NCBI GenBank assembly: GCA_963726245.1
Contig: CAVSBT010000014.1
Location: 1 to 26,191 of the forward strand
Length of the DNA: 26,191 nucleotides
Direction of reading: 5' to 3'
Source of the DNA: an uncultured Chloroflexia bacterium
GTDB lineage: Bacteria > Chloroflexota > Dehalococcoidia > DSTF01 > JALHUB01
Shown here: one piece after another, positions 2,228-22,046 of the stretch
Layout: each line of letters begins with the position of its first letter
How positions within the stretch are numbered: position 1 is the stretch's first letter
The notes under the pieces: model-generated
Seen by the model: the letters and a program-made list of their open reading frames with translations, nothing else
Databases searched by the model: none
What the model was told of the DNA's origin: nothing
Program-made: the position numbers and the translations under genes

Positions 2228-5200
2228 GTTCCCCTCCGGCTAGAAGCATCCCTTCCTCCAGGCTCTTGCGGTAGCTCGCCACCTGCCGCTCGATCTCCTG
2301 CGCTGCCTCACGGCGACGCTGCATATCCTCCAGCCGGCGGCGGAGGAAGTAGTCGATCGTCTCCACCCGCAGCTTGATCGAGCCGACCGGCCGGTTCTCG
2401 TCGAGGTCATGGAAGGCGAAGTAGGGCGTACCGGCCGCCTCAAGTATCCCCTCGATCACGTGGTAGATGGGGGAGTCGAGGCCGCACTTGAAGGAGGAGA
2501 AATCGATACCGCTCAGGTTGGGATGGCGGGCGACGAACTTCGCCGCCCAGACCTTGCGGCTGGTGTTCTCGCTGAAGGTATGTTTCCAGACATCATGGAT
2601 GTCCCGCGGGTCGGCGATCTCCCCCCGGCGTACCTCCTCGCCGAAGAGCCGGTCGAGGATATCATCATCCATGGGCAGCGAGTCGATGGTGAAGACGGGG
2701 TAGCCCAGCCGCTGGATAAGCTCCGGTATGTCGTGGTGCACGGCGGGGTCGTTGTGGTAGGGGCGGCCGAGCAGGACCACCCCGAGGCGGCCCTCTTGCT
2801 CAAGCCGGTCGAGGACCTCCCGCGCCCGTCTCCTCAGGCCGCCGCGGAACGCCTCCAGCGCCCGGTAGCCCTCCTCTATCGCCGCCGCGTTCTCCTCAGG
2901 GCTCACGCCGAGGATCGGGCGGAAGAAGCTCAACATCTGCTGCTCGAAGAGGTTGGGCTCGCCCATGTGGAGGACGGGGGCGTAGAAGGATGCCCCTCTC
3001 TCGGCGAAGGCGTCTTTCTCCGTGGTGAAGGCTGCTTTCACCACCTCCGGTATCCCCTGCACCGTGGGACAGCTCCAGCCCGCCTGGCATTCGTAGATAT
3101 CGCTGGGGACGCTCATTATCTCCGGGAAGAAGATGACGTCCGGCTGCTTCTTGGTGAGGAGGTTGTGGACGTGGGAGACCGCGATCTTCCCCGGGAAGCA
3201 GGGGTCGATGGAGCCGCGCCGGGAGCCCTCGCGGAACATCTGGTCGTCTGTGTAGTCGGACCAGAGGATGTTGCGGTGGGGCACGCCCAGGCTTTCCAGG
3301 TAGGCGGTGAAGAACGGGGCGTAGGAGTACATGGTGAGCAGTCGCGGCATTCCGATGCGCAGCCGCGCCCGCCGCTCCCGCAGCCGCGCCGCCGTCCGGG
3401 TGCCGTCCCGGCCCCACAGGAAGCGCTGCCCCCTGCCGTTGGTGGCGGCGACGCCCTGCGGCGAGTAGCTGCGGAATGCCTCGCGGGCGGCGATCTCGAC
3501 GAAGTTGGGGTTCGCCTTCTTCACCACATTCTCGCGGGTGTTGAAGGCCCTCACCTCGTCGATGCTCTCCGCCATCCCCCGCTCGCAGGTGGCGGATATG
3601 AAGCGGGTCGTGTGTTCGGGCGAGGTCCTGATGTCGACGAAGGTGCGCAGACACTTGTTCTTGCAGAACGAGCAGCTGGTAGATTCGTCGCGGGTGGCGG
3701 TGAAGGTGAGCGCCTCCACCCGGTCGAACCCGATGAACGAACTCTCCCCGCCGTTGCCTACGCGGATCGCCTCGCTTGCAGCGCCGAGAGCGCCGCTCTC
3801 GCCGGCGTGCGGGTGGACGTGGATCTTCGCGTCCGGCACGCGGGCTTTGATGAAATCGTACTGGGCCTTGACCACGGCCAGGTTGTAGTGCGTCCCTCCC
3901 TGGAGGAGGAAGGTCTTGCCGAAGCGGGCCAGGTTCGTCTCCTGGACGACGTAGAGCCAGACGTTCTTGGGCAGGGTCAGGGCGAGGCCGGCCATGATCT
4001 CGGACGGCTGCCAGCCGAGTTGCTGGAAGTGCGAGATGTCCTGCTCCAGGAAGACGGCGCAGCCGTAGTGAAAGGCCGGCGCCCGCTCGGCGCTGAGCGC
4101 GACGTCGGCCCACTGGCTGAGGTCATAGCCGAAGCGGGCGGTCGTACTCTGGAGGAAGTAGCCGTTGCCGGCCGAGCACTGCGTGTTGAGCTTGAAATCC
4201 TTGACGGCGCCCGCCTTCATGATGATGACCTTGATGTCCTGCCCTCCCACGTCGGCGATGACGTCCACGTCGGGGTAGTAGCGGAGGGCGGACCGGGCGT
4301 GGGCAACCGTCTCCGGGATCGCCATGTCGGCGCCGAGCGCCTCCTTCAGCAGGTCCTTGGCATAGCCTGTCGTGGCCATGCCCAGGATGCGCAGGCGCGC
4401 TCCCTGCCCCTCCACCTGGCGTCGCAGCTCGCCCAGCACTTCTTTGGCGTCCTGGAGCGGGTTGCCCTTGCAGAGCTGGTAGGCTTTCGCCAGCAGATTG
4501 CCTTCGCCGTCTGTGAGGACGGCCTTCGTCGAGGTCGAACCGCCGTCCAGCCCCATGTATGCTTCCACGACCTGGCCGGGAGAGAAGGCGAGGGGTGTGA
4601 AGGGCTTCGCGCCGTAGAGCCGGCGGAACTCCTCGAGGTCTTCCCCGGGGGCCAGTGGGCCCCGCTGGCCGGTGTCCTGCTTCGCCTTCCGCCGGCCGAG
4701 GTCGATGTACTCCTCCAGCGCCCGCGTCCCGGCGTAGGTGCCGGCGAGTCCCTCCTCCTGCTGCCCGTATAGGGTCGTCCCCAGGGCGGCGTAGTACAGG
4801 GAGTGCTCCGGCACGACGATTAGCTCCTCAGGGGTGGAGCCGGCGGGCAGCGTCAGCCCCCGTTCCTCCCAGAGGCGCGGCACGTGTCGCCGCCACGCCT
4901 CCTGTAGACAGGGGAGGAAGGTGTTGGGGCCGCCCAGGAGGAGCACCTTGGGGCGCAGGACGTTGCCGCGGGTGAGCACGCTGAGGTTCTGCTGGACGAT
5001 CGCCTCGAAGAGGGAGACAATCAGATCCTCGGAGGGGACGCCCTGCTTCTGTAGGCTGTTCATATCGGTCTCAGCGAAGACGCCGCACTTGCCGGCGATG
5101 GGGTGCACCTTCGCGTTGCCGTGCCGCACTTCCCTGAGCTGCGCTTGGCTCAGGTGCAGCTTCGCCGCGATGCGGTCGATGACGGCGCCCGTGCCACCGG

Positions 5201-5804
5201 CGCACTTATCGTTCATGTTGGCGAGCTTCCGCTTGCGGCCCGTCTTCGGGTCCTCCCGCCAGATGATGATCTTGGCGTCCTGCCCTCCCAGCTCGATGAC
5301 CGAGCCCACGTCCGGCTGCAGCGCCTCCGCGGCCAGCGAGACGGCGTTGACCTCCTGCACGAACCGCGCCCCAATGTAGGGGGCGAGCGTCGCGCCGCCG
5401 CTTCCCGTGACGAAGATGCGGAACTGCTCGGCTGGCAACGGGAAGCGCTCTTCTATCTCCTTGAGAACCTCGAGGACCTTCTCCGGCTGGCGCGTACCAT
5501 GGAGGCGGTAGTCGGCGCAGAGGATCTCCTTGCTGTTGGGCGCGACGACCACGTACTTGACGGCTGTGGAGCCGACGTCAAGCCCGATGATGAGCTCGCG
5601 GTGAGATAAGCCGTCGCCGTCCTGACGCGGTCTCAAGACTGGGGACGACGAAGCGTGGTTGCTACCCGTCAGACTCAACCTCCAAGAGTGACCTGCGATG
5701 CCATCCGCCGAAAAGGACGAGTCCCGTTGGCCCAGGTTCCCCCGCCCCGCTGGCACAAAACGTTCTGTGGGGTCGAAGCCCGGCTCCTCACGGGCGAGGA
5801 GCAC
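2202..5804 (-). CDS. Fused double BadF/BadG/BcrA/BcrD ATPase (CoA-enzyme activase) plus DUF2229-like domain (PlsA-like)
   Basis: Two ASKHA ATPase modules (GLDVGSTAVK...ELGGQDAK...NDKCAGGTG...KCGVFAE and GLDGGSTSTK...DVGGQDIK...NTQCSAGNG...GCAVFLE), a CSFCKNKC linker, and a C-terminal domain with CFPGK, CPTV, GRPYH and FKCG. The start is uncertain because the first ~65 aa look non-conserved. Confidence 0.88.
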   Translation of the reverse strand: MLLAREEPGFDPTERFVPAGRGNLGQRDSSFSADGIAGHSWRLSLTGSNHASSSPVLRPRQDGDGLSHRELIIGLDVGSTAVKYVVVAPNSKEILCADYRLHGTRQPEKVLEVLKEIEERFPLPAEQFRIFVTGSGGATLAPYIGARFVQEVNAVSLAAEALQPDVGSVIELGGQDAKIIIWREDPKTGRKRKLANMNDKCAGGTGAVIDRIAAKLHLSQAQLREVRHGNAKVHPIAGKCGVFAETDMNSLQKQGVPSEDLIVSLFEAIVQQNLSVLTRGNVLRPKVLLLGGPNTFLPCLQEAWRRHVPRLWEERGLTLPAGSTPEELIVVPEHSLYYAALGTTLYGQQEEGLAGTYAGTRALEEYIDLGRRKAKQDTGQRGPLAPGEDLEEFRRLYGAKPFTPLAFSPGQVVEAYMGLDGGSTSTKAVLTDGEGNLLAKAYQLCKGNPLQDAKEVLGELRRQVEGQGARLRILGMATTGYAKDLLKEALGADMAIPETVAHARSALRYYPDVDVIADVGGQDIKVIIMKAGAVKDFKLNTQCSAGNGYFLQSTTARFGYDLSQWADVALSAERAPAFHYGCAVFLEQDISHFQQLGWQPSEIMAGLALTLPKNVWLYVVQETNLARFGKTFLLQGGTHYNLAVVKAQYDFIKARVPDAKIHVHPHAGESGALGAASEAIRVGNGGESSFIGFDRVEALTFTATRDESTSCSFCKNKCLRTFVDIRTSPEHTTRFISATCERGMAESIDEVRAFNTRENVVKKANPNFVEIAAREAFRSYSPQGVAATNGRGQRFLWGRDGTRTAARLRERRARLRIGMPRLLTMYSYAPFFTAYLESLGVPHRNILWSDYTDDQMFREGSRRGSIDPCFPGKIAVSHVHNLLTKKQPDVIFFPEIMSVPSDIYECQAGWSCPTVQGIPEVVKAAFTTEKDAFAERGASFYAPVLHMGEPNLFEQQMLSFFRPILGVSPEENAAAIEEGYRALEAFRGGLRRRAREVLDRLEQEGRLGVVLLGRPYHNDPAVHHDIPELIQRLGYPVFTIDSLPMDDDILDRLFGEEVRRGEIADPRDIHDVWKHTFSENTSRKVWAAKFVARHPNLSGIDFSSFKCGLDSPIYHVIEGILEAAGTPYFAFHDLDENRPVGSIKLRVETIDYFLRRRLEDMQRRREAAQEIERQVASYRKSLEEGMLLAGGERVYDSVRG

Positions 5805-5826
5805 ATCGCCCTCTGGACCCCATATG

Positions 5827-7356
5827 CTATCTGGCGGCCGCCGCCTCCTTAGCGCGATGCCGGGTGGTCGTGTTGACCAGCGCTTCGCGGTCCCCGCCGC
5901 TCATCCCGGCGATGTACCTCAGCAACTTCTTCCGCGACTCGATGTCGTACTGCGTGGTGATGGCGATCTGCTCCATGATCGGCGAGCCACCACCATGGTA
6001 GGAGCCGATGTTATGGATTCCGCCCGATGCCGAGCAGAGCACATCACCCAGGTAGCGCCAGAACTGCGCCTGGTCCTCGACGTCGACCTTGGGGCTCCGC
6101 TTGGTGTACTTGCGAAGCAGACCCCCGACCTCCGGGTTCGCAAAGTCCCTCTCGTGCGGGAAGGTCGCCGTCACGCCACCGGAGATGTCGCAAAGGATCT
6201 CCGCTTCCCGGAAGACCGCCTCGCCGGTGAGACAGCGACCGACGTTGCAGTAGATCGAGTTGGGGATGTAGGAGCCAGGGCCGTAAGGCACGAAGCCGAC
6301 GCCGGGCATGTAGACCTCCGGCTTGCCGAGGTCCGAGGCAGTGTAGCCCGCGGCGTACCCTAGCTCGGTGGTCATGATGAGCTCCGCAAGCTTCTCCCGT
6401 ACGTGCGGCGCTTTCTGGATGTTGTTCACTTCGGCGGCGAGAGCTGCCCCGCCAAGAATCAAGTCGCCAATCGCCGGCTTGCAGCCGGAATAGGAGTGGC
6501 GGTGGAACAAGGCGAAGAGGAGGGCCAGCACCCCCCCGTGCTGCCATTCGCCGGCCAGGAAGACCCGCTCCCAGGGCACGAAGCAGTTGTCGAAGATCAT
6601 GTAGGAGTCGGTGGAGCCCGGCATGAAGCCGCGCTTGTAGTACTCCCTCTCTCGGAGGTTGTGGATCGTGATCACCTGCTTCAGGCCGTCCCAGTCACCG
6701 GGGATCGCGAAGGCGACCGCGTAGTCCTTATCCTCGGCACGCAGGGCCCTCGTGGGGAGCACCAATACCTCGTCGGCTACCGAGGCTTCGGAGATGTGGA
6801 GCTTGCAGCCACTGACGACGATGCCATCCGGCCGGCGTTCCTTGATGTGGACATAGACGTCGGGGTCGGGCTGGTCGGCCGGCCGCAACAAGCGGTCGCC
6901 CTTCACGTCGGTTTGGGCGCAGCAGCCCACGAGGTCCTCCGTCTGGAAGCGGGTGAGCCACTTCTTGAAGTTCTCGTGGTACTGGGTGGCACCGTTGTTT
7001 GATTGGTCGGCTTCATAGGAGACGTTGTAGATCGCGTTGGTGGCGTCGATGCCCATGCAGCGCTGGATACAACCGCCGATCTTCTGGCAGAGCATGCGGG
7101 TCATGTCCTGCTTCTTGTGCAGGTCGTCGGTGTTCTGGTGAATGTGGGTGAAGCGGCTGATCCGCTGTCCCGTGAGATGGGAGATGGCCGTGCACAGCTC
7201 TTCGTTCTCGGGCCTGGCTGCTTCGTCGAAGGTAGTCCCGATGGTGTTGAGGCAGTTCATCTGCCGCTCGTCGGTGCGGTCGATGAGCTCACCGTCGAAG
7301 TAGATGTTCCGCCGCATCTTGCCGAGTCCCTTGATGTACTCTTCCTTGGTTCTCAT
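5827..7356 (-). CDS. 4-hydroxybutyryl-CoA dehydratase / vinylacetyl-CoA isomerase-like protein (HpaB/AbfD family, FAD and [4Fe-4S])
   Basis: 509 aa with CIQRCMGID (CxxxC), QTDVKGDR, HRHSYSGCK and HGGGSP, all AbfD-type motifs. Strong SD GGAGGAG before the ATG. Confidence 0.85.
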   Translation of the reverse strand: MRTKEEYIKGLGKMRRNIYFDGELIDRTDERQMNCLNTIGTTFDEAARPENEELCTAISHLTGQRISRFTHIHQNTDDLHKKQDMTRMLCQKIGGCIQRCMGIDATNAIYNVSYEADQSNNGATQYHENFKKWLTRFQTEDLVGCCAQTDVKGDRLLRPADQPDPDVYVHIKERRPDGIVVSGCKLHISEASVADEVLVLPTRALRAEDKDYAVAFAIPGDWDGLKQVITIHNLREREYYKRGFMPGSTDSYMIFDNCFVPWERVFLAGEWQHGGVLALLFALFHRHSYSGCKPAIGDLILGGAALAAEVNNIQKAPHVREKLAELIMTTELGYAAGYTASDLGKPEVYMPGVGFVPYGPGSYIPNSIYCNVGRCLTGEAVFREAEILCDISGGVTATFPHERDFANPEVGGLLRKYTKRSPKVDVEDQAQFWRYLGDVLCSASGGIHNIGSYHGGGSPIMEQIAITTQYDIESRKKLLRYIAGMSGGDREALVNTTTRHRAKEAAAAR

Positions 7357-7447
7357 GTCTCCTCCATTGATGTGTTTATTCTAGCTGTGTCATGTTGGGA
7401 ACCAGTTCATGCCGTTCCAGGCCTCGGCGCTACTTCTTGAGCCGTAG

Positions 7448-7466
7448 GTGTGCATAGTAGGCATAC
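7448..7466. promoter_or_regulatory. Imperfect palindrome overlapping a TACTAT -10-like box (minus strand) in the divergent promoter region
   Basis: GTGTGCATAGTAGGCATAC, 7 of 9 positions paired. ATAGTA at 7454-7459 reads TACTAT on the minus strand. No good -35 box was found. Confidence 0.25.
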
Positions 7467-7684
7467 GCCCCTGACCTTCCCCCATCTAAGCTACCACAGG
7501 CTATGTTGGTGTGACCATGGCTCCTGGCCGTAACGAGGCGGAGCATCTGCCTATCACGCAGAGAGTTGAGCTCACGCCGCAGGTTCGGTGGCGAGTACGC
7601 ATCCTATCGCCGCCAGGCCTCCTTCGAGTACAATCGTAGTGTGCCGGGTGCACTCCTCGACACATGCCCGGCTGGTAACAGACT

Positions 7685-10081
7685 ATGACAACGAGCACCC
7701 CGCAGGCCTCCGCCGCCATCTGGTCGCCGTCCCCCTCGCTTTCGCCGCGCGTCCGTCGCCTTCGGGAGGAGTTCTTCTCCTTCGCGGCCCGCGACCACTT
7801 CCGCAACGAGGTCCGCCCCTACGGCAGCGGCACCCCCTGGGACGAAGTCTGGTCTCCCTACCACTGGGGAGTCGTTCCGGAGATGTACCCCCTGTTCGAC
7901 GCCGTCAGCGACAGCCTGCTGGCGGCCGCCGAGACCGTGCCCCTGCCGGACGGCTTCTGGGCCGAGCCGCTGGTGGTCCGCCGCGCCCTCTTCTTCGGCG
8001 CGGTCGTCGAGCGCTGGCTGCCGGTGAAGATCCTGGACGGCGAACTCATCGTCGGGTCCTACTTCAACACCGCCCTCTCAAAGACTCACGCGCGGGCGGA
8101 GGCCCGCACCTGGCGGCAGGGCGTCCGCCGCTGGCGAAAGAAGGCGCGGGAGCTCAACGACACCGGCACCGGCAACTGCGGCGCCATCCCCGGCCACCTG
8201 ATCCCTAACTACCCGAAGGTGCTGCGATTGGGCTTCCGCCGCATCGCCGCCGAACTTGAGGAGATGCGGGCCCGGGAGCCCGACGCGACGAGACGCGACT
8301 TCCTGCGCGCGCTCATCACCTGCTGCGAAGCCGCCATCGCCTTTGCCGGGCGTTACGCAGACGAAGCCGACCGGCTGGCGCAGAAGGAGACGGACCCCGC
8401 GCGACGGGTCGAACTGGAGAAGATCGCCGGTATCTGCCGCCGGGTGCCGGCGGAACCGGCCGCGACCTTCCAGGAAGCGCTCCAATCGCTCTGGTTCGCT
8501 CACATGCTGGTCATGGCCGCTGAGTCCTACCCGGGGCCCGGCCTCTCGCCCGGGCGCATCGACCAGTACCTCTACCCCTACTACCAGGCGGACGTGGCGA
8601 ACGGAGGGCTCGACCGCCAACAAGCCCGGGAACTCCTCCAGTGCCTCTGGATCAAGCACAACTACGCCTACGATTATCAGGGCCGGATCGGCAACCAGGG
8701 GATCAACTCCGGCTTCGGGCAACTGATCACGCTGGGCGGCACCAACCCCGATGGCAGCGACGCCAGCAACGACCTCACCTGGCTGATACTGGACGTCATC
8801 GAGGAGATGAACCTGCTGGAGCCCAAGCCCAACGTCCGCCTCCACGAGAAGACGCCAGAGGACCTGCTGCGCCGTGTCGCCGGGCTGATCGCCCGCGCCC
8901 AGGGCTCGCCCTTCCTGCTCAACTTCGACGAGGCGTCGATCCGCGGCCTGGCCTGGCAGGGGCTCCCCAAAGAACAGCTCTGGGACTACGCGCCGGTCGG
9001 CTGCCTGGAGAACACCCTCCAGGGCTGCGACCGCTCCGGCACCGTCGACGTCAACCTGAACCTGGCCAAGGCGGTCGAACTCACGCTCAATGACGGCGTC
9101 GACATGGCGACCGGCCAGCGCCTGGGCCCGCGGACCGGCAACCCGCGCGCGTTCCCGGACTTCCCGTCGTTCCTGGCCGCCTTCAAGCGCCAACTCACGG
9201 CGCTGCTCGAACAACTCATCGACTGTAACAACCAGGCGGACGCCCTGCGCGCCGGGTTCGACCCGACGCCATACCTGAGCGTGCTGGTCGATGGCTGCGC
9301 CGAGAGCGGCCGCGACGTCACCGCCGGCGGCGCCCGCCACAACTACATCACCGTCGAGGGCATCGCCCTGGCGACGGCGGTGGACTCGCTCGTCGCCGTC
9401 AAGCACCTGGTTTACGACGAGCGGCGCGTGACCATGGACGACGTGCTGGTCGCCATCCGCGCCAACTTCGAGGGGCACGAGGACCTGCGCCGGATCCTTG
9501 CCAACAGAGCCCCGAAGTTCGGCATGGATGACCTGGAGGTAGACGGCCTGGCCCGGGAGGTGTCACGGTTCTGGACGGAGGAGGCGTTCCGTCACGTCTC
9601 ACCGGCCACCGGCCGGCGCTACCGCGGCGGCTACCTCTCCTGGAACTACTGGATTGGCTACGCGCCGCTGACCGCCGCCACGCCCGACGGGCGCCGGCGG
9701 GGGACGTTCCTCTCCAACGGCGTATGCCCGGTCACCGGTGCTGACCGCGAAGGGCCCACCGCCGCGATTCAGTCGGTGGGTCACCTGGGACTTGAGACGG
9801 CGCCCAACGGCGCATCCCACACGCTGAACCTTAGCCCATCGCTCCTGCGCGACGAAGAGCATGTTGCCAAGCTGGCGGCCCTCCTGCGGGCGTACTGCCG
9901 CGTGGGCGGCACCGCTCTCCAGGTCAACGTCCTCGACCCCGACACACTGCGGGCGGCCCAGGCGGATCCGGAAACGTACCGCAACCTGCTGGTGCGCGTG
10001 ACGGGCTACAACGCGTACTTCGTCACCCTGGGGCGCGAGCTCCAGGATGAGATCATCGCTCGCGAAGCGGGGCCGGTGTAA
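7685..10081 (+). CDS. Glycyl radical enzyme (PFL-like superfamily), substrate unknown
   Basis: 798 aa with the C-terminal Gly loop RNLLVRVTGYNAYF and a single-Cys loop APVGCLE, plus GRIDQYLYPYY, APKFG and ATPDGRRRG. Followed by an activase gene. Confidence 0.95.
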   Translation: MTTSTPQASAAIWSPSPSLSPRVRRLREEFFSFAARDHFRNEVRPYGSGTPWDEVWSPYHWGVVPEMYPLFDAVSDSLLAAAETVPLPDGFWAEPLVVRRALFFGAVVERWLPVKILDGELIVGSYFNTALSKTHARAEARTWRQGVRRWRKKARELNDTGTGNCGAIPGHLIPNYPKVLRLGFRRIAAELEEMRAREPDATRRDFLRALITCCEAAIAFAGRYADEADRLAQKETDPARRVELEKIAGICRRVPAEPAATFQEALQSLWFAHMLVMAAESYPGPGLSPGRIDQYLYPYYQADVANGGLDRQQARELLQCLWIKHNYAYDYQGRIGNQGINSGFGQLITLGGTNPDGSDASNDLTWLILDVIEEMNLLEPKPNVRLHEKTPEDLLRRVAGLIARAQGSPFLLNFDEASIRGLAWQGLPKEQLWDYAPVGCLENTLQGCDRSGTVDVNLNLAKAVELTLNDGVDMATGQRLGPRTGNPRAFPDFPSFLAAFKRQLTALLEQLIDCNNQADALRAGFDPTPYLSVLVDGCAESGRDVTAGGARHNYITVEGIALATAVDSLVAVKHLVYDERRVTMDDVLVAIRANFEGHEDLRRILANRAPKFGMDDLEVDGLAREVSRFWTEEAFRHVSPATGRRYRGGYLSWNYWIGYAPLTAATPDGRRRGTFLSNGVCPVTGADREGPTAAIQSVGHLGLETAPNGASHTLNLSPSLLRDEEHVAKLAALLRAYCRVGGTALQVNVLDPDTLRAAQADPETYRNLLVRVTGYNAYFVTLGRELQDEIIAREAGPV

Positions 10082-10097
10082 CGCCCCGGAAGGGGCG
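10082..10097 (+). other. GC hairpin with GGAA tetraloop directly after the GRE stop codon
   Basis: CGCCCC-GGAA-GGGGCG with no U-tract. The 3' arm contains the SD-like AAGGGG of the small ORF at 10102. Confidence 0.45.
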
Positions 10098-10101
10098 AAC
10101 C

Positions 10102-10215
10102 ATGTGTGACTCCAAGCACTACACGGAGACAGCGGCCTGTCGCCACGGCCGCGACGCTGGGGCGGACACCCCCAATGCTGGCGAATCCGGCGAGAAGGTG
10201 TACGAGTGGCCGTGA
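10102..10215 (+). CDS. Putative 37-aa small protein between GRE and activase
   Basis: Translated by hand: MCDSKHYTETAACRHGRDAGADTPNAGESGEKVYEWP. 29 of the 36 codons after ATG end in G/C. Its TGA overlaps an in-frame GTG of the activase gene (GTGA, 10212-10215). Confidence 0.35.
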   Translation: MCDSKHYTETAACRHGRDAGADTPNAGESGEKVYEWP

Positions 10216-11183
10216 CGCACGCCACGCGCTCGGCGAAGACAGCGGATAGCGCGGGAGCGGTCACCGGCGTCACCTTCAACGTGCAGCGCTTCAGCACCGA
10301 GGACGGCCCCGGCATCCGCACAACCGTCTTCATGAAGGGCTGCCCGCTGCGGTGCCGCTGGTGCCACAACCCAGAGGGCCTCTCGCCGCACCCGCAACTG
10401 GTCTGGTACGACGTGCGCTGCATGGGCGCCCGTGCCTGCCTGGCCGCCTGCCCGACCGGAGCCCTGGAACTGACGCCGGCGGGAATGCGCATCGACCGCG
10501 AGCGCTGCTCACCCTGCGACCTCTGCGCCGGAGCCTGTCCCAGCGGCGCCCTCGAGGTCATCGGCAGGCGATGGACGCCGAAGGAGCTCTTCGCGCTTGT
10601 GGCCAGGGACACCGTCTTCTACGAGACGTCAGGCGGAGGCGTGACGGTGTCCGGCGGCGAGCCCGCCATGCAGCCTGACTTCCTGGAGGCGTTCCTGGCG
10701 CTGTGCCACGAAGGCGGCATCGCCGCGGCCATCGACACCTGCGGCTACGCGGACTGGAGCGTTTACGAGCGCCTGCTGCCGCACGTTAGCCTGGTGCTGT
10801 TCGACCTGAAGGTGGCCGACCGGGAGCGGCACCGCGAGGCAACGGGCGTCTACCCGGAGCGCATCTTCGAGAACGCCGCCGCCATCGCAGCGCGGGGCGT
10901 GCCCATGTGGGTGCGGACGCCGGTGATCCCCGGCTACTCGGACGACGAGGAGAACATCGCGGCGCTGGCCGCGTTCATCGCCGGACGGCTGCCGACAGTC
11001 CAGCGCTGGGACCTGCTCGCCTACACGAACCTGGGGCGGCCCAAGTACCACCGCCTGGACCTGCCCTACGCGCTGGAAGACACGGACCTGCCCCTGCGGG
11101 AGCGGATGGAGCGACTGGCTGCCGTCGCTGTGCAGGGCGGCGTGCCGAACGTGACGTGGTCCGGCGCTACCCGGGACCGATGA
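10206..11183 (+). CDS. Glycyl-radical enzyme activating protein (radical SAM, with ferredoxin insert)
   Basis: QRFSTEDGPGIRTTVFMKGCPLRCRWCHNPE, a ferredoxin-like insert (CMGARACLAACP...CSPCDLCAGACP) and GGGVTVSGGEP. Start is GTG 10206 or GTG 10212. Confidence 0.95.
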   Translation: MAVTHATRSAKTADSAGAVTGVTFNVQRFSTEDGPGIRTTVFMKGCPLRCRWCHNPEGLSPHPQLVWYDVRCMGARACLAACPTGALELTPAGMRIDRERCSPCDLCAGACPSGALEVIGRRWTPKELFALVARDTVFYETSGGGVTVSGGEPAMQPDFLEAFLALCHEGGIAAAIDTCGYADWSVYERLLPHVSLVLFDLKVADRERHREATGVYPERIFENAAAIAARGVPMWVRTPVIPGYSDDEENIAALAAFIAGRLPTVQRWDLLAYTNLGRPKYHRLDLPYALEDTDLPLRERMERLAAVAVQGGVPNVTWSGATRDR

Positions 11184-13641: not shown

Positions 13642-14202
13642 CTACGGGCCGAAGACTGCCTTCACTTGTAGCTTCTGGGCCGACTGCACAGCGTCGTTCG
13701 TCGGGACCGTGATCTCGAACAGGTGAGGGCCGTCCATCCCCGTCATCATGTGCGTCTCGAAGGAAAGCGTCGTCTTCTCGCCTGGCTTGACTGTCGTGGA
13801 ACCCACGACCGGCTGGAATGGTCAACAACCCTCCAGCACCTTCACGCTGGGCTCGGAGATGACCAGCGGCGCGTCGCCGACGTTCTGGAGGTCGAATGAG
13901 TGGGAGACGTTCGTCATCAGCGGGACCTGGCCAAGGTCCACCTCTGTCGTGGGAAGGTAGAGGCGCGCTCCACCCGTGTACGGCTGAGCGGCGCTGGCGG
14001 CAGATGGGGTGACGGGTGTTGTGTCAGGAGCCACGGCCGACTGTTGATCGCTGCCCCCGCGACTGCGAACGAGGTCCGCAGTCAGGAAGACGGCGATGCC
14101 GACGATTGCGGCCAGCACTCCCCAGCCCACGATCTTGAGGGGCGTGATCCGGCGATGCCCGCCGCTCTTGATCTGCTTGCGTTTCTTATGTTTTGGGTTC
14201 AC
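13642..14202 (-). CDS. Membrane-anchored DUF1573-like Ig-fold protein, probable selenoprotein (Cys-Sec motif, in-frame TGA at 13822-13824)
   Basis: The ORF track stops at ...KVLEGC-TGA, but the frame continues PFQPVVGSTTVKPGEKTTLSFETHMMTGMDGPHLFEITVPTNDAVQSAQKLQVKAVFGP to TAG at 13642, giving 186 aa. This completes the DLG.V...F...NVGDAPL.I...C...PG...TND Ig-like pattern. A SECIS-like hairpin follows the TGA. Confidence 0.8.
13793..13809 (-). promoter_or_regulatory. Putative bacterial SECIS element
   Basis: On the mRNA: UGA, 12 nt, then GUCGUGG-GUU-CCACGAC. This is a perfect 7-bp stem with G at the start of the apical loop, a geometry similar to the E. coli fdhF SECIS. Confidence 0.65.
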
Positions 14203-14283: not shown

Positions 14284-14781
14284 CTATCCTTCGGTGATGG
14301 GCGGAGTGTCCGTCGACGGCCCGTACTTGCTGTACTTGGCGTCGACGTTCTGCCGGATGTCCTTTGCACTCAGTCCCTGGCCTTTCAGAGTCATTACATC
14401 GGCGGCTATGTCCACGCAGGTTCGACAGCCCGAGGCATGGCTCTCGTAGGTTCCGTCCGGCTTAATGAAGCACTCCTTCAAATTGTGGTGCGCGGTGGCG
14501 TGCATGCCGCAGCCGCAATAGCAGGGCATCTTCGTGAAGAGATCCTCGTTGGCGACGGCAGCCTGGTATCCAGCCAGCGTCGCGCTTGACGTGTGAGCGA
14601 ACGCCGGCAATTCGCCGCCCGCCTGCGCGGCTACGCTCTCCGACGCGGGATCGCCGCCCCGCGCGGTGACCCACAGGAAAGCGCCGCCCGCGATGAGGGC
14701 GATCACCACAACCAAAGCAGCCCCGCGAATGCCGTCACGCCGCCACGCTCTCGTGCTCCCCGCAGTTTCTCTCGATTTCAT
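14284..14781 (-). CDS. PCYCGC motif-containing membrane-anchored protein
   Basis: N-terminal TM helix, MPCYCGCGMHATAHHNLKECF and HASGCRTCVDIA. AAAGGAG SD precedes ATG 14781 (165 aa); the longer ORF start overlaps the upstream gene. Confidence 0.85.
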   Translation of the reverse strand: MKSRETAGSTRAWRRDGIRGAALVVVIALIAGGAFLWVTARGGDPASESVAAQAGGELPAFAHTSSATLAGYQAAVANEDLFTKMPCYCGCGMHATAHHNLKECFIKPDGTYESHASGCRTCVDIAADVMTLKGQGLSAKDIRQNVDAKYSKYGPSTDTPPITEG

Positions 14782-14876
14782 GCTTGTCGCTCCTTTTGCT
14801 GTGTGCCTCAGAACGGGGTTGGAATCGTTCAACGGATCAGAAGTATCCACCTCTAGTCGCCGAGGAGTCGCGTTGC

Positions 14877-15263
14877 CTAGGCCCTCGGCTCCACAATCAG
14901 CTCTCCCCACATCTGGTGATGTCCATCCCCGCAGACATTGGTGCACGTGAATCCAAACGTGCCCGGCTTATCCGCGACGAACTCGACATCCGTGTATTTC
15001 CCTGGATATACGGCCTCCACAGCGACGTCGTAGCCTTCAAGGAGAAAGCCGTGTACCACGTCATCGCTGGTGAGACGCAGATGAACGACGTCACCCTCGG
15101 TCACGCGAATTGTCTGTGGATTCCAAGTGCTATTGGCGCCGACGAGCGTGAATTCTTGGTCCGACTGGGTCCGCAGAACGCGCTGATAGCCGAGCGTGGC
15201 CGCCGGCATGCCCAGCAGGACGAGCACAACCAGCCCAATAGCAAGCTTCTCGAGGGTGGACAT
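14877..15263 (-). CDS. Cupredoxin with CuA-type motif (cytochrome c oxidase subunit II C-terminal-like domain)
   Basis: N-terminal TM helix, LTSDDVVHGF and CTNVCGDGHHQM (H...CxxxCxxxHxxM). Confidence 0.88.
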   Translation of the reverse strand: MSTLEKLAIGLVVLVLLGMPAATLGYQRVLRTQSDQEFTLVGANSTWNPQTIRVTEGDVVHLRLTSDDVVHGFLLEGYDVAVEAVYPGKYTDVEFVADKPGTFGFTCTNVCGDGHHQMWGELIVEPRA

Positions 15264-15265
15264 CG

Positions 15266-15646
15266 TCAGACCTCACCGTTTGAATTCGATAGCTCCCAGT
15301 AGTCTGACCCCATTGGTAGCTTCGTGCCCCTGTCTTCCAGGACGCCGGGATGAGGTATGAGGCCAAAGGCGGCACGCATTTCCGCTGCGCCGCCCACGTA
15401 CAAGGCGTTGCACTGGAAGAGCAAGCTCTCGACATCGCCGTGAATCCGGCTCGGAGCCAGAACGCTCAAGAGGTGAACGTGCTCGCGGCTATGGCCGTTG
15501 TGACCGTTCACGCTCGTGCAAACGCCGATGAGATCGCGCCGGACCTTGAGCGCCTCCAACCGAGCGACCGCTGCATCCACCTGCTCATGGTCTGCGAAGG
15601 CGGCCACAACGATGGGCAACTTCCTTCCTGGCTGGACCACCGACAT
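15266..15646 (-). CDS. Hypothetical protein with His-rich loop
   Basis: Fills the gap in a tightly packed operon. GAGG SD lies 6 nt before ATG 15646. Contains CTSVNGHNGHSREHVH. Confidence 0.65.
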   Translation of the reverse strand: MSVVQPGRKLPIVVAAFADHEQVDAAVARLEALKVRRDLIGVCTSVNGHNGHSREHVHLLSVLAPSRIHGDVESLLFQCNALYVGGAAEMRAAFGLIPHPGVLEDRGTKLPMGSDYWELSNSNGEV

Positions 15647-15665
15647 CATTCCCCTCAAATCACAG

Positions 15666-17099
15666 TCAACCGATGAACAACCACAAGAGGATCACCGTAA
15701 TCAGGGCCAGCAGCCCGGCGACCGGGACCACTGACCGCCGTGCCCCCGCCGCGTCGCCGATGTACTCACTCGAAATCTGATGAGCCAGACGCACCGACAT
15801 CGCCAGCCCCACCGTCAGGATTGGCACCTGGATGTAGGGAAGAAGTTGAGGCAGATAGGGTCTCCAGGCGTAGCCGGCGGTGCCAAACAGGTTCCACCCC
15901 CATCCGAAGGGGTCCGACAGCACCGGCAGGATGTCCGAAGCATTGGCGAACAGGAAGTCGAGGCTGAAGGCAACCCAGGCTGCCAGGCCCAGCGGCACGG
16001 CCGTGTAGGCAAAGGCGACGAACAGGCGGCGGGCAGGCACGTCGCTCGCCCTCGACAGCGCTTTCCCCAGCCAGCTGACGGCGAAGAACGCTCCCGGTGC
16101 GAGCACCAACATGGAGACCATCAGCAAGCCCGCGTAACCTATGAACGCCGGCAACTGACCGCTGCCCAGGTTCGCCCAGCTCCTCAGCCAGCCCCAGGGC
16201 CCGGCCATGATCGCTGTGTACAAGAGAGCGGAGGTCAGCAGGATCAACGCTCTGTAAGCTTCGTCCGCGTGCCGCCGTGGCACCGCCAGGTCGACCCCAA
16301 ACGGCCGCAGGCTGAGGGCGATATTCCCCTTAGGACACGTCTTGAGGCACTCCATGCACATGCCGCAATAGGCATTGCGATCCATGGTGCCGGGGTACTC
16401 CATCCAGGGACAGCCAAAGCCGGCCGCAGACCCTTTGATGCACTCTTTCGCCGCGGGGCCGCAGTGAACCAAGCACAGCTCGGGGTCAACGGCCCGCAGC
16501 TCCAGAGGCGCCGCAGCCGAATACTGGCCAACGAATCCGCCGACAGGGCAGACGTAGCGGCAGAAGGCTCGTCGCTTGAAGACCAGGTAAAGGCACAGCG
16601 CGAGGAGTGTGAGCGCGAGGAGAAGGGCACCCGTCACGAACGGTCGCGTGAGTATGACGGCGCTGAAGAGGGCCATGACGACCAGGACGGAGTTCTGCAG
16701 CCAGAGGCCACGGATGGCCTCCGGCCACTCGAGTCCAAGTGTCAGGGGCCGCCGGCGGCCCGGAATCAAGATGGCCCGCCTCTGCACCCATTCGCCGACG
16801 GCCGCAACGGGGCACACGGCGCACCAGGTCCGCGCTCCCAACGGCACGAGGATCAGGATCAGCGCCCCCCACCAGACGATCCAGGCAAAGACTATCGAGA
16901 AGTTGGCGCTGCCGACCGGCGTTCCGAAGAGACCGGTGAGGATCACCAGCACGAACACAGAGAGCACCGGCAGCACGACAATGAACGGGAACAAGCGGTG
17001 GGTGAGGACCAGGCGCACGGGTTCACACCGCAACACGTTGATGCGCTTACTGTCCCCGCCCGCGCCGGCTGTTCGTGGCTCGACGGCGGTTCTAAGCAT
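15666..17099 (-). CDS. Polytopic 4Fe-4S binding membrane protein (NapH/NosR C-terminal/CcoG-FixG-like)
   Basis: Many TM segments with RTWCAVCP, AFCRYVCPVG, CLVHC...ECIKG...GCP and YCGMCMECLKTCP. Likely start is ATG 17099, overlapping the upstream stop codon (alternative 17132). Confidence 0.88.
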   Translation of the reverse strand: MLRTAVEPRTAGAGGDSKRINVLRCEPVRLVLTHRLFPFIVVLPVLSVFVLVILTGLFGTPVGSANFSIVFAWIVWWGALILILVPLGARTWCAVCPVAAVGEWVQRRAILIPGRRRPLTLGLEWPEAIRGLWLQNSVLVVMALFSAVILTRPFVTGALLLALTLLALCLYLVFKRRAFCRYVCPVGGFVGQYSAAAPLELRAVDPELCLVHCGPAAKECIKGSAAGFGCPWMEYPGTMDRNAYCGMCMECLKTCPKGNIALSLRPFGVDLAVPRRHADEAYRALILLTSALLYTAIMAGPWGWLRSWANLGSGQLPAFIGYAGLLMVSMLVLAPGAFFAVSWLGKALSRASDVPARRLFVAFAYTAVPLGLAAWVAFSLDFLFANASDILPVLSDPFGWGWNLFGTAGYAWRPYLPQLLPYIQVPILTVGLAMSVRLAHQISSEYIGDAAGARRSVVPVAGLLALITVILLWLFIG

Positions 17100-17613
17100 G
17101 GGCGGCGCCTGTTCCTTTCCGCAGCCAGCCATACGCCGTGGCCCCGACGGCTACCACAAGCGTAGCTATGACGGCTCCGAGAAACGGGCTGTTGGGCTCG
17201 ACGGAGAGCAACCCGACCATGAAGGGATGCAGGTCGCCGCAGGGCACGGAGCAGCGGAGGCGAAATGTGCCCGGTCTATCGGCCACGAAATCCAGGACAG
17301 ACGTCTTGCCGGGCGCCGCCTCCGTCTTGAGACCGTAGCCGTCCACGTAGACGCCGTGGCTCACGTCCTGCGGCGCAAGGCGTAGGATTACGTGGTCACC
17401 CTTATTGACCTCTATTCTCTCGGGGGAGTAAGCGAATCTGCTCGCTTCAAGGGTGATCTCACGCGTCTCCGGCTTGCCGGCTGGAAAGGGTATGAAGCTG
17501 CCCGCAGCCACCGCCACCACGGATAGACCCGCGACAGCGCCCACTGCCAGCCACCCCCAATAGCGGAACAGCCCTCGCTTCAGTCTCTTGCCTATTTCGG
17601 CTTCTCCCGACAT
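17092..17613 (-). CDS. Membrane-bound cupredoxin with CuA-type motif (N- and C-terminal TM helices)
   Basis: FAYSPERIEVNKGD, DVSHGVYVDGY and RCSVPCGDLHPFM, with hydrophobic helices at both ends. Confidence 0.88.
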   Translation of the reverse strand: MSGEAEIGKRLKRGLFRYWGWLAVGAVAGLSVVAVAAGSFIPFPAGKPETREITLEASRFAYSPERIEVNKGDHVILRLAPQDVSHGVYVDGYGLKTEAAPGKTSVLDFVADRPGTFRLRCSVPCGDLHPFMVGLLSVEPNSPFLGAVIATLVVAVGATAYGWLRKGTGAAHA

Positions 17614-20558: not shown

Positions 20559-22046
20559 CTAGCCCCTCCGCAGTTGCTGAACGATTTTCCCCTGGGCGTC
20601 GTGGATGCTCACAATCAGGGGCATCTCGCCGGGCAATGAGTGGGTGGCGCAGCCGAAGCACGGGTCGTAGGCGCGGAAGGCCATCTCGATGCGGTTAAGA
20701 AGCCCCTCGGTGACGACCGTCCCCTTCTTGATCAGCCCCTGGCTGGCCTTCTTCACCGACATGGCGATGGCGCCGTAGTTGTGAGCGGTGCCGACGATGA
20801 GGTTGATCTTGCGGGCCACCCCTCTCTCGTCCGCCTGGTAATGGTGGATGAGGACACCGCGCGGCGCCTCAACCACACCTACGCCCTCGCCTGGCGTGGC
20901 GCTGGGAATGGTGCGAACGTCGGGACTGGTGATCTCCGGGTCCGTGGCCAGTTCCACCATGCGCTCGGCGGCATAGACGAGCTCGATGAGGCGGGCCCAG
21001 TGCGTCGCTAGCGTGGCGTGCACCGGCTTGCCCCCCAGAGTCGAGTACATGCGCTCGTACTCGGCCTGGGCCAGGGGGGTGGCCATCCCGTCGGCGGCGT
21101 TGAGACGGGCCAGGGGGGCCACCCGGTAGATGCCGCTGTCCTTGCCGTCAACGAGCCCCTGCCACCCCAGCTTCTTCAAGTAGGGGAACTTGAGGTAGGT
21201 CCAGGGCTCCACGTGCTCGGCGATGTGCTCCAAGTAATCCGAGGGGTCGAACTTGAGGAACTCTTTCCCGTCCGGGTCCACCACCCGCAGCATGCCGTCG
21301 TAGAAGTTCACTTTGTTGTCGGCGTCCACCAGGCCCATGTAGTAGGTCTTGTGGGTGAAGGTGTCGCTCACAATCATGTCCAGGTAGCCCTTGTTGGCCA
21401 GCACCACGTCATCGAGGATCTTGAGGGAGAGCTTGCCAAATTCCACCGCCGAACGGGCGATCGCCTCGATCTTGACCCGGTCCTCCTCGGTGATGGGCTT
21501 GCTGACGCCGCCGGGAAGGCCGCAGACGGGGTGAATGTACTTCCCCCCGATCATCGCCACCACGTCGTGGCAGAGCTCGAGGTGCTTGAGCACCTCGCCT
21601 CCAATCTCCAGGCCCACCTTGTGCACCACGCCGATGATGTTGCGCTCGGCGGGGCTGGCGTCGGGCCCCACGACGAAGTCGGGGCCACTGAGAGCGTAGA
21701 AGTGCGTAGCGTGGTCGGCCACGAAGAACGCGCTGTACAGTAGCTCTCGGAGCTTCTTGGCCGCAGGTGGGGGGTCTACCTTGAAGACGGCGTCCAGGGC
21801 CTTGGCGGAGGCCATGTGGTGAGCCTCCGGGCACACCCCACAGATGCGCGGGGTGATGATCGCCAGGTCTTCGACCTGCCGGCCCTCGCAGAACTTCTCG
21901 AATCCTCTCAGCTCAGGTACCTGGAAGTAGGCGTTCTCCACATCCCCCTCCTTGTCGAGGAAGATGTCGATACGGCCGTGGCCTTCAAGGCGGGTGATTG
22001 GGTCTATTACTATGCGTCTTTCGGTAGGTGTGGCATCCGTACTCAT
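20559..22046 (-). CDS. mvhA: Group 3c-type [NiFe] hydrogenase large subunit
   Basis: IDPITRLEGHG, ELRGFEKF, L1 motif PRICGVC, EAPRG and L2 motif RAYDPCFGCATH followed by a 26-aa cleavable tail. Clustered with mvhD, mvhG and hdrA. Confidence 0.93.
   Translation of the reverse strand: MSTDATPTERRIVIDPITRLEGHGRIDIFLDKEGDVENAYFQVPELRGFEKFCEGRQVEDLAIITPRICGVCPEAHHMASAKALDAVFKVDPPPAAKKLRELLYSAFFVADHATHFYALSGPDFVVGPDASPAERNIIGVVHKVGLEIGGEVLKHLELCHDVVAMIGGKYIHPVCGLPGGVSKPITEEDRVKIEAIARSAVEFGKLSLKILDDVVLANKGYLDMIVSDTFTHKTYYMGLVDADNKVNFYDGMLRVVDPDGKEFLKFDPSDYLEHIAEHVEPWTYLKFPYLKKLGWQGLVDGKDSGIYRVAPLARLNAADGMATPLAQAEYERMYSTLGGKPVHATLATHWARLIELVYAAERMVELATDPEITSPDVRTIPSATPGEGVGVVEAPRGVLIHHYQADERGVARKINLIVGTAHNYGAIAMSVKKASQGLIKKGTVVTEGLLNRIEMAFRAYDPCFGCATHSLPGEMPLIVSIHDAQGKIVQQLRRG

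Follow-up and report, generated by a model that had tools for sequence, protein, structure and literature searches.

A vicinal Cys-Sec pair in a predicted, exported DUF1573-type selenoprotein from a copper-centred gene neighbourhood of Chloroflexota

The window analysed here is a 26,191-nucleotide stretch of DNA from an uncultured Chloroflexia bacterium (assembly GCA_963726245.1, contig CAVSBT010000014.1, positions 1 to 26,191). On its minus strand, at 14202..13645, it carries a gene which very probably encodes a real selenoprotein and not a pseudogene. The product would be a 186-residue type-II membrane protein, composed of a basic cytoplasmic tail, one transmembrane helix, a linker of ~35 residues and an exported immunoglobulin (Ig)-like domain of the DUF1573 family, in which selenocysteine (Sec) directly follows a cysteine. 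Selenium in the protein is predicted, with high confidence, from signals for Sec decoding together with conservation across the family. What is new is that the DUF1573 fold gains a second Sec position, distinct from the known one, within a vicinal Cys-Sec pair that occurs mainly in Chloroflexota; this provides a bacterial, exported example of a pairing best known from thioredoxin reductase. The gene neighbourhood leads us to favour, at about even confidence, a job in the extracellular handling of soft metals, chiefly Cu(I).

Results

A conserved UGA codon within a truncated gene

The coding sequence (13645..14202, minus strand; 186 codons) opens with a GTG at 14202, with AAGGGGGTGA just upstream, and closes with a TAG at 13644..13642. 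Translated with TGA as Sec it begins MNPKHKKRKQ, and homologues start MNPK[HR]KKRKQ at the same position. The in-frame UGA, codon 127, lies at 13824..13822, immediately after the TGT codon of Cys126 (13825-13827), and the surrounding sequence reads VKVLEG-C126-UGA127-PFQPVVGSTTVKPGEK; the tryptic peptide across the site is VLEGC-U-PFQPVVGSTTVK, or VLEGCUPFQPVVGSTTVK in full. Beyond the UGA run 59 sense codons (residues 128-186), which translate as PFQPVVGSTTVKPGEKTTLSFETHMMTGMDGPHLFEITVPTNDAVQSAQKLQVKAVFGP. Two domain models extend across the codon: Pfam DUF1573 (PF07610) matches residues 85-182 with 33.7 bits, above its cut-off of 26.1, and with 35.6 bits when the genome was scanned, and a HYDIN/VesB-like Ig domain matches residues 81-182 with 39.3 bits.

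Existing annotation misses this. Ten relatives in a large protein database, 60-88% identical to the window protein, are each 121-126 residues long and end in ...[E/Q]GC, cut off at the same place by gene callers; indeed every copy from the clade met in databases stops at Cys126 and, where named, is a 'hypothetical protein'. Owing to this truncation, the second half of the Ig domain is missing from protein catalogues along with the Met/His loop described below. Of the 401 Chloroflexota species genomes sampled, at least 25 need this correction.

Six-frame genome searches and a scan of species genomes yielded 41 homologous loci, which were re-extracted for comparison. The gene is present in two of 18 genomes from the taxonomic family of the window organism, its own genome counted, and in 27 of 401 genomes sampled across the phylum, a figure which includes the window genome and one chance-level match; in the phylum-wide search, exactly one TGA fell inside the match at 31 of the 33 places listed. 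The species-genome scan gave 11 more loci, labelled as Dehalococcoidia, Chloroflexota, Anaerolineae or Tepidiformaceae and, in one case, as a 'Gemmatimonadetes' metagenome-assembled genome (MAG). TGA directly follows G-C (or S-C) in 40 of the 41 loci, spanning many genera and identities down to ~33%, and is replaced by TGT in the remaining one (L040). Further, eight full-length database proteins (P0012-14, P0110, P0129, P0132, P0149, P0162) carry a Cys-Cys form, ...VEGCCPP...MHxGMxGxH...NDP; a search of a representative library was dominated by giant multi-Ig proteins, with six single-domain relatives among the 150 listed. It is on this pairing of TGA and Cys that the assignment of positions 13822..13824 (minus strand) to Sec127 is founded, and since the same TGA occurs in 40 of 41 loci of many genera, a sequencing error or recent mutation is excluded. 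Within one genus, L040 (G102) and L043 (G120) carry TGT and TGA, respectively, at the Sec column, with an identical hairpin downstream, and G102, which has the Cys form, retains selA; the pair looks like a recent Sec-to-Cys switch.

Selection acts alike on either side of the codon. Across 12 sequence pairs, the ratio of synonymous to non-synonymous differences was 64:51 over the 24 codons after the UGA versus 108:86 over the 30 codons before it, a similarity which indicates purifying selection downstream. The family's best-conserved blocks fall after the UGA (P128, P140-G141, M152, G155, M156, G158, H160, F162 and N-D-P). TGA also doubles as the terminator of several family genes (L062, L032, L038 and others), and genome-wide reassignment of UGA was ruled out on that account. 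A pseudogene, a sequencing error and a pair of separate genes were likewise considered and ruled out, by the shared TGA column, the stop-spanning domain and the equal constraint on both sides.

A covarying hairpin and the machinery for selenocysteine

Twelve nucleotides past the UGA begins a hairpin, GUCGUGG-GUU-CCACGAC (13793..13809, minus strand), whose loop starts 19 nt past the codon. The rules for a bacterial Sec insertion sequence (bSECIS) set out in section 5 of PMC13188914 specify a loop of 3-9 nt with a G within its first two positions, a stem of 4-16 bp, a distance of 16-37 nt from UGA to loop, and a minimum free energy (MFE) of at most -7.5 kcal/mol. The hairpin conforms to all four, with a GUU loop (first base G, then U), a stem of 7 bp, a distance of 19 nt and an energy of -10.6 to -11.1 kcal/mol. 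In 41 ungapped sequences the seven stem pairs are formed in 96.8% of cells, compared with 16-70% in controls in which the 3' arm was slid out of place, and the hairpin is in register in folds of homologues. Five of the seven pairs show compensatory change (G-C/A-U, U-A/C-G, C-G/U-A, G-C/A-U and C-G/A-U/G-C), and none of 500 column shuffles reached the observed covariation score. The peptide encoded over the hairpin varies (VVG[S/A]TT, TIGSMV, AVSSTV, TVGATV) while the stem stays, a pattern that points to an RNA constraint superimposed on the coding constraint. An Rfam scan of the window returned no family at its gathering score.

The window genome, a 2.68-Mb MAG that is 83% complete with 6% contamination, encodes what would be needed to read this signal: selA (547.6 bits), selB (258.2 bits), selD (360.4 bits), itself with one in-frame TGA at its SCAG-U-AGK site, and two tRNA-Sec genes with anticodon UCA, detected with ARAGORN. 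Among the 26 other carrier genomes, selA was found in 25, the exception being 88% complete. The two tRNA-Sec(UCA) genes lie at C31:67876-67969 and C19:83811-83904 of G000 (L018, L019), and the MAG also holds two selD-like loci, on C27 and C31, one with a Sec codon and the other split over two frames without one. This doubling may reflect two strains, given the 6% contamination, or a genuine duplication.

An earlier note on this DNA, made from the letters and their open reading frames (ORFs), had proposed an unannotated selenoprotein truncated by gene callers. The particulars on which it drew, namely a TGA after a Cys codon in mid-domain, 59 further codons completing the fold, a perfect hairpin 12 nt after the UGA (here placed at 13809..13793) and the string HMMTGMDGPH in the read-through part (residues 151-160), all stand, the gene being on the minus strand. 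Its expectations that TGA would pair with Cys among homologues, that conservation would continue downstream, that the hairpin would be conserved and fit a bSECIS model, and that selA, selB, selD and tRNA-Sec would occur in the genome, were equally borne out by the results above.

An exported Ig-like domain with two conserved motifs

The N-terminus is rich in Lys and Arg and is followed by some 23 hydrophobic residues (22-44), read from the sequence as a signal-anchor helix (14071..14139, minus strand) in a layout that homologues share; the AlphaFold2 (AF2) model has low confidence over both anchor and linker. With this N-in, C-out topology, predicted by eye, the C-terminal domain should lie outside the cytoplasmic membrane. 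That domain (residues 81-186; 13645..13962, minus strand) is defined by AF2, Foldseek and conserved columns as a DUF1573/PapD-like Ig fold: the AF2 model, built on a 34-sequence alignment, is a seven-strand sandwich with a predicted local distance difference test score of 96-98 over residues 80-186. Foldseek matched it to PapD-like, ASH and HYDIN Ig domains, the nearest bacterial structure being 2qsv, an uncharacterised Porphyromonas gingivalis protein (root-mean-square deviation 2.5, 22% identity), and an Atlas structure search reconfirmed the DUF1573 fold. A profile search of PDB sequences returned HYDIN repeats and 2qsv (E = 1.2e-4); a PDB sequence search with a Cys form gave chance-level matches only. 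A cluster of ~100 proteins met in the structure search, commonest in Nitrospirota, has a cytochrome c domain fused to DUF1573, a hint that partnership of this fold with electron carriers is common.

The motifs of the domain are N107-x-G109, G125-C126-U127-P128, P140-G141-E142 and N169-D170. In the 34-sequence alignment the invariant or near-invariant residues are D89, G91, N107, G109, G125-C126-U127-P128, P140-G141, M152, G155, M156, G158, H160 and F162, several of which belong to a Met/His loop, H151-M-M-T-G-M-D-G-P-H160 (13723..13752, minus strand), that joins strands 143-150 and 158-168. Across the family this loop has the consensus M-[H/M]-x-G-M-x-G-P-H, with M152, G155, M156 and H160 each at least 90% conserved and G158 invariant. 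The modelled strand order is A, B, C, C', E, F, G, and the Cys-Sec pair comes after strand 119-124, in the loop that follows strand C'.

Relation to known selenoprotein and copper-protein families

A DUF1573 domain-containing selenoprotein with the motif UGC has been tabulated previously (PMC9312934, PMC13188914), and two selenoproteins of a then new family, OS_HP2, were listed in the Olavius symbiont study (PMC1976440, Table 2); we infer that the tabulated protein is OS_HP2, from its place in the table between DUF166 and OS_HP3. The window protein resembles OS_HP2 (NCBIfam NF041425) in its Pfam domain (PF07610), in being a predicted selenoprotein, and in bearing Sec in the same loop after strand C'. 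It differs in scoring 30.3-30.4 bits against a cut-off of 100, which none of the 401 sampled Chloroflexota genomes reached, in having C-U-P where OS_HP2 has U-G-C, and in its additional conserved Met/His loop and distinct gene neighbourhood. Ordinary DUF1573 domains have a C-G-C motif after strand C', and a canonical C-G-C domain from the same phylum (L090, ASASCGCTAAHVGKKELAPGE) stood in for the true OS_HP2 sequence in an hhalign comparison. In this alignment Cys126 falls on the second Cys and Glu124 on the first, which corresponds to the U of UGC, with Sec127-Pro128 inserted; only the column of the second Cys is shared, the window protein has G-C-U-P in place of the C-G-C motif, and L090 lacks the Met/His loop. 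The earlier note had placed Sec at the CGC site of DUF1573, and this holds for the loop but not for the column. The NF041425 score and the different Sec column rule out membership of OS_HP2, and the gene belongs instead to a separate subfamily of the DUF1573 fold family with its own Sec position.

Mammalian thioredoxin reductase (TrxR) has a C-terminal Gly-Cys-Sec-Gly redox centre, in which G-C-U is the redox motif. The window protein likewise has a Gly-preceded vicinal Cys-Sec pair, able to form an eight-membered selenylsulfide ring, but here a Pro follows the motif, which is internal and lies in a predicted exported Ig domain with no flavoprotein attached; there is no homology to TrxR. Among copper chaperones, PCuAC, CusF and CopC use Met/His ligands, and Sco a Cys pair with His. 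The window protein is similarly a small beta-sandwich, predicted to be extracytoplasmic, with Met/His candidates and a Cys pair, encoded beside CuA-type cupredoxins; it differs in showing no sequence match to PCuAC (PF04314) or Sco (PF02630), DUF1573 and HYDIN-like Ig being its sole matches at E <= 0.1. To our knowledge, no such chaperone employs selenium as a ligand for copper transfer.

Two further selenoprotein families invite comparison. The Csac_0668-family 2Fe-2S/CopZ-family selenoprotein is listed with the motif 'CU' (cd10141; PMC13188914); like the window protein it has Cys next to Sec, and its annotation is metal-related. By its description it belongs to another domain family, and no similarity emerged here, where the two sequences were not directly compared. 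The CYCXC/PCYCGC family (OS_HP4, NF041379, PF13798), whose function is given as unknown in PMC13068155, also exists in Sec and Cys forms and is co-encoded with the Sec gene at 24 of 29 loci, but is a distinct protein, and all 27 aligned neighbour copies, including that of the window, are Cys forms. We found no publication on the C-U DUF1573 subfamily, although BSepDB or the supplementary tables of reviews may already list Chloroflexota 'DUF1573' members, and its novelty was judged without Haft and Tolstoy 2025, on selenoprotein neighbourhoods, which may bear on it. New bacterial selenoprotein families appear regularly; what is unusual here is that an exported Cys-Sec protein has an Ig fold and is linked to CuA cupredoxins.

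A copper-centred gene neighbourhood

In the window the Sec gene is the last of a same-strand gene string. The string begins with a 488-residue Fer4_5 membrane polyferredoxin (15666..17132, minus strand; Pfam Fer4_5, 33.6 bits), distantly NapH/MauN-like, with scores of 28-31 bits against NapH models, far under their cut-offs. That this neighbour might be a CcoG-type cupric reductase is not claimed, as the NCBIfam scan gave weak NapH/MauN and NosR matches and no CcoG. Next comes a 130-residue ORF (15266..15658, minus strand) without a Pfam or NCBIfam match and conserved only in the closest relative (L057), and then a membrane-anchored cupredoxin (14877..15263, minus strand; COX2 33.6 bits, Cupredoxin_1 31.8 bits) with the motif DVVHGF ... 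C-x3-C-x3-H-x2-M, which we take to be CuA-type. The gene adjoining the Sec gene encodes the Cys form of a PCYCGC-family protein, CYCGC...H...C...H..C..C (14284..14946, minus strand; PF13798, 79.7 bits; 60.5 bits against the NF041379 model for CYCXC (seleno)proteins, below the cut-off of 90); the overlap of this ORF with the cupredoxin gene makes a start later than 14946 probable. The stand-alone CuA-motif cupredoxin thus adjoins a NapH-like polyferredoxin in a genome without COX1, Sco or PCuAC matches; in Anaerolineae-type genomes the cupredoxin is fused to cytochrome c (L083:2607-4909). Cupredoxin and polyferredoxin may together form an uncharacterised electron-transfer or copper-redox unit.

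The arrangement recurs. With the window proteins as tblastn queries, 29 loci with 3-5 kb of flanking sequence were surveyed: PCYCGC was found at 24, Fer4_5 at 17 and the cupredoxin at 13, all three together at 13 and at least one at 26, and these neighbours lay on the same strand as the Sec gene with one exception. With shorter flanks, at least one of the three occurred at 34 of 41 loci, the window included. Pfam matches were also tallied for 232 neighbouring ORFs in two batches, chosen by length and GC3, so that some are not genes. The leading families (first plus second batch) were COX2 (7+15), PCYCGC (9+12), Cupredoxin_1 (4+14), Fer4_5 (6+6) and cytochrome c (4+7), followed by histidine kinases (4+5), HMA (at least 1 in the first batch, 5 in the second) and E1-E2 ATPase (2+2); CcmE (4) and plastocyanin-type Copper-bind (2) also appear.

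Individual loci add to this picture. A complete Anaerolineae-type genome (L083) has the order HMA - PCYCGC - cupredoxin - Fer4_5 - cupredoxin::cytochrome c - Sec gene, with a histidine kinase bearing a Met-rich segment and a response regulator convergent to the operon. At L061, the Sec gene is flanked on one side by a CPH-type P-type ATPase and a secreted protein of 13% Met, and on the other by a regulator pair and an HMA protein. At L070, from the taxonomic family of the window organism, a CPC ATPase containing HMA and cupredoxin domains is encoded 2 kb off; we take both combinations, CPH plus a His-rich tail and CPC plus HMA, to be copper-type signatures. Secreted proteins with 9-13% Met and GGMMGG repeats, together with a histidine kinase whose N-terminal segment is Met-rich, were observed beside the Sec gene at L061:1769-2692, L085:7320-8183 and L044:1877-3004, and resemble copper-binding Met motifs. 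In genus g63, the gene directly upstream of the Sec gene encodes a membrane-anchored TlpA/redoxin-like protein and has its own in-frame TGA, in the motif W-U-R-W-C (UxxC). This ORF is at L034:56-760 (plus strand) and occurs also at L035 and L037 (G066, G054, G042), and is probably a second selenoprotein of the same operon. Taken together, the neighbourhood is copper-centred, extracytoplasmic and redox in character, and the Sec gene marks a conserved module, not yet described, that combines PCYCGC with CuA cupredoxins, a NapH-like polyferredoxin and an HMA protein.

Discussion

Extracellular handling of soft metals, chiefly of Cu(I), is in our view the most likely job of the window protein, at roughly even confidence, and we prefer a metal role both to pure thiol/selenol redox chemistry and to the handling of other soft metals. 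The Cu(I) assignment derives mainly from the gene neighbourhood, and topology, metal, ligands, partners and redox cycle are all deduced. In outline, the hairpin that starts 12 nt past UGA127 would direct SelB with Sec-tRNA(Sec) to decode this codon, and at the exported domain the uptake and transfer of copper would fall to the thiolate/selenolate pair and the Met/His loop. Partners in such a module would be the PCYCGC Cys/His protein, one or two CuA-type cupredoxins (sometimes as cytochrome c fusions), the NapH-like polyferredoxin and a CopZ/MerP-like HMA protein, joined in some genomes by CopA/CopB-type ATPases, Met-rich proteins and a two-component system. The Cys-Sec pair might cycle between a selenylsulfide and a reduced form, for which the adjacent TlpA-like UxxC selenoprotein could serve as reductant in one genus. 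More tentatively, and short of even confidence, the protein may be the first selenium-based extracytoplasmic copper handler, within a module found throughout Chloroflexota, with electrons from the polyferredoxin reaching a Cys-Sec pair that reduces copper, carries it as a selenolate, or both, and loads CuA cupredoxins together with PCYCGC. If true, this would assign functions to the C-U/C-C subfamily of DUF1573 and to PCYCGC. The natural pairs of Cys-Cys and Cys-Sec forms make the role of the module directly testable.

Several observations weigh against a copper role, or against the selenoprotein assignment itself. In the s-type Ig topology, the C'-E and E-F ends form opposite poles, so that the Cys-Sec pair (C'-E end) and the Met/His loop (E-F end) probably lie apart in the modelled domain; by this strand order a single intramolecular Cys/Sec/Met/His site is unlikely, and two sites, or an intermolecular site, would fit better than one combined copper site. 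A divergent member (L056) keeps C-U without the Met loop, and three of the 29 widely surveyed loci have none of the three marker neighbours. No known copper chaperone is among the listed Foldseek matches, and the window protein matches no PCuAC or Sco model in Pfam at E <= 0.1. Nor can it be a simple substitute for those chaperones, because they coexist with it: the 26 other carrier genomes have Sco in 22 (20 over the cut-off), PCuAC in 13 and COX1 in 24, and a replacement of Sco or PCuAC was dropped for this reason; in the window's own genome (83% complete) none of Sco, PCuAC and COX1 was found. The HMA neighbour scores 39 bits against MerP, 54 against a UxxU metal-binding selenoprotein model and 46 against CopZ, all below cut-offs. 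The hairpin is unremarkable in stability for such G+C-rich sequence (MFE -11.1 kcal/mol, z = -0.25), with 75 of 200 shuffled sequences folding as stably, and it overlaps a conserved peptide, so that its conservation is partly at the protein level. The earlier note had offered a copper chaperone or a thiol reductase: the neighbourhood favours the copper half of that proposal, which no match to a copper-chaperone fold backs, and the choice stays a matter of interpretation.

The strongest competitor, which we nonetheless consider doubtful, is that this real selenoprotein performs thiol/selenol-disulfide exchange and binds no metal, its Cys-Sec pair acting like the GCUG end of TrxR. Electrons would come from the NapH-like polyferredoxin or the TlpA-like reductase, and the substrates would be cysteine pairs in apo-cupredoxin, PCYCGC or apo-cytochrome c. 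The shared G-C-U motif suits such chemistry, as do the TlpA/redoxin-like UxxC selenoprotein gene directly upstream in one genus, the Cys-rich partners that constantly adjoin the Sec gene, and the CcmE (4 ORFs) and cytochrome c (11 ORFs) genes among its neighbours. Selenoproteins are tied to antioxidant defence in a 2026 review, and a 2022 review has most selenoprotein families as thought to be redox-active. Yet the domain is an Ig sandwich rather than a thioredoxin fold, pure exchange would leave the conserved Met/His loop without a role, and the copper ATPases, HMA proteins and Met-rich neighbours indicate metal handling.

It is unlikely that the selenoprotein serves in a detoxification module by binding Hg(II), Ag(I), Cd(II) or some other soft metal or metalloid, in the manner of the vicinal Cys of MerT or of the MerA C-terminus. 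Vicinal cysteines do bind Hg(II) in Mer proteins, and the HMA neighbour, on the scores given above, fits MerP and the UxxU model about as well as CopZ; against this, copper proteins are the commonest neighbours, the merA, merT and merR families are absent from the top 25 neighbour families in either batch, and the ATPase signatures (CPH plus a His-rich tail, or CPC plus HMA) are presumably of the copper type. Many metal-related selenoproteins are, for their part, implicated in mercury or arsenic resistance (PMC13188914).

That the protein is no selenoprotein at all, the TGA being a true stop (through nonsense mutation, assembly error or the juxtaposition of two small genes) or being read through by a standard tRNA, is very improbable: gene callers do stop at Cys126 in 11 of 11 clade database entries (P0001-P0011), a GTG at 13806 could open a 54-residue ORF, and the hairpin energy is unexceptional, but the TGA is common to 40 of 41 loci in many genera and also terminates several family genes, both halves are needed for the Ig fold, coding constraint is equal before and after it, a Cys codon takes its place in L040 and Cys-Cys forms exist, and the Sec machinery is in the genome.

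Other genes in the window

Apart from the Sec gene and its neighbours, the window carries an anaerobic radical-enzyme cluster at 2202-11183. It comprises a BcrAD/BadFG-type activase fused to DUF2229 (2202-5804, minus strand), an HpaB-family protein (5827-7356, minus strand), a glycyl-radical enzyme (7685-10081, plus strand) and the radical-SAM activase of the glycyl-radical enzyme (10206-11183, plus strand). A [NiFe] hydrogenase large-subunit-like gene (PF00374) lies at 20559-22046 on the minus strand, and was ruled out as a Sec form, its stop codon being other than TGA.

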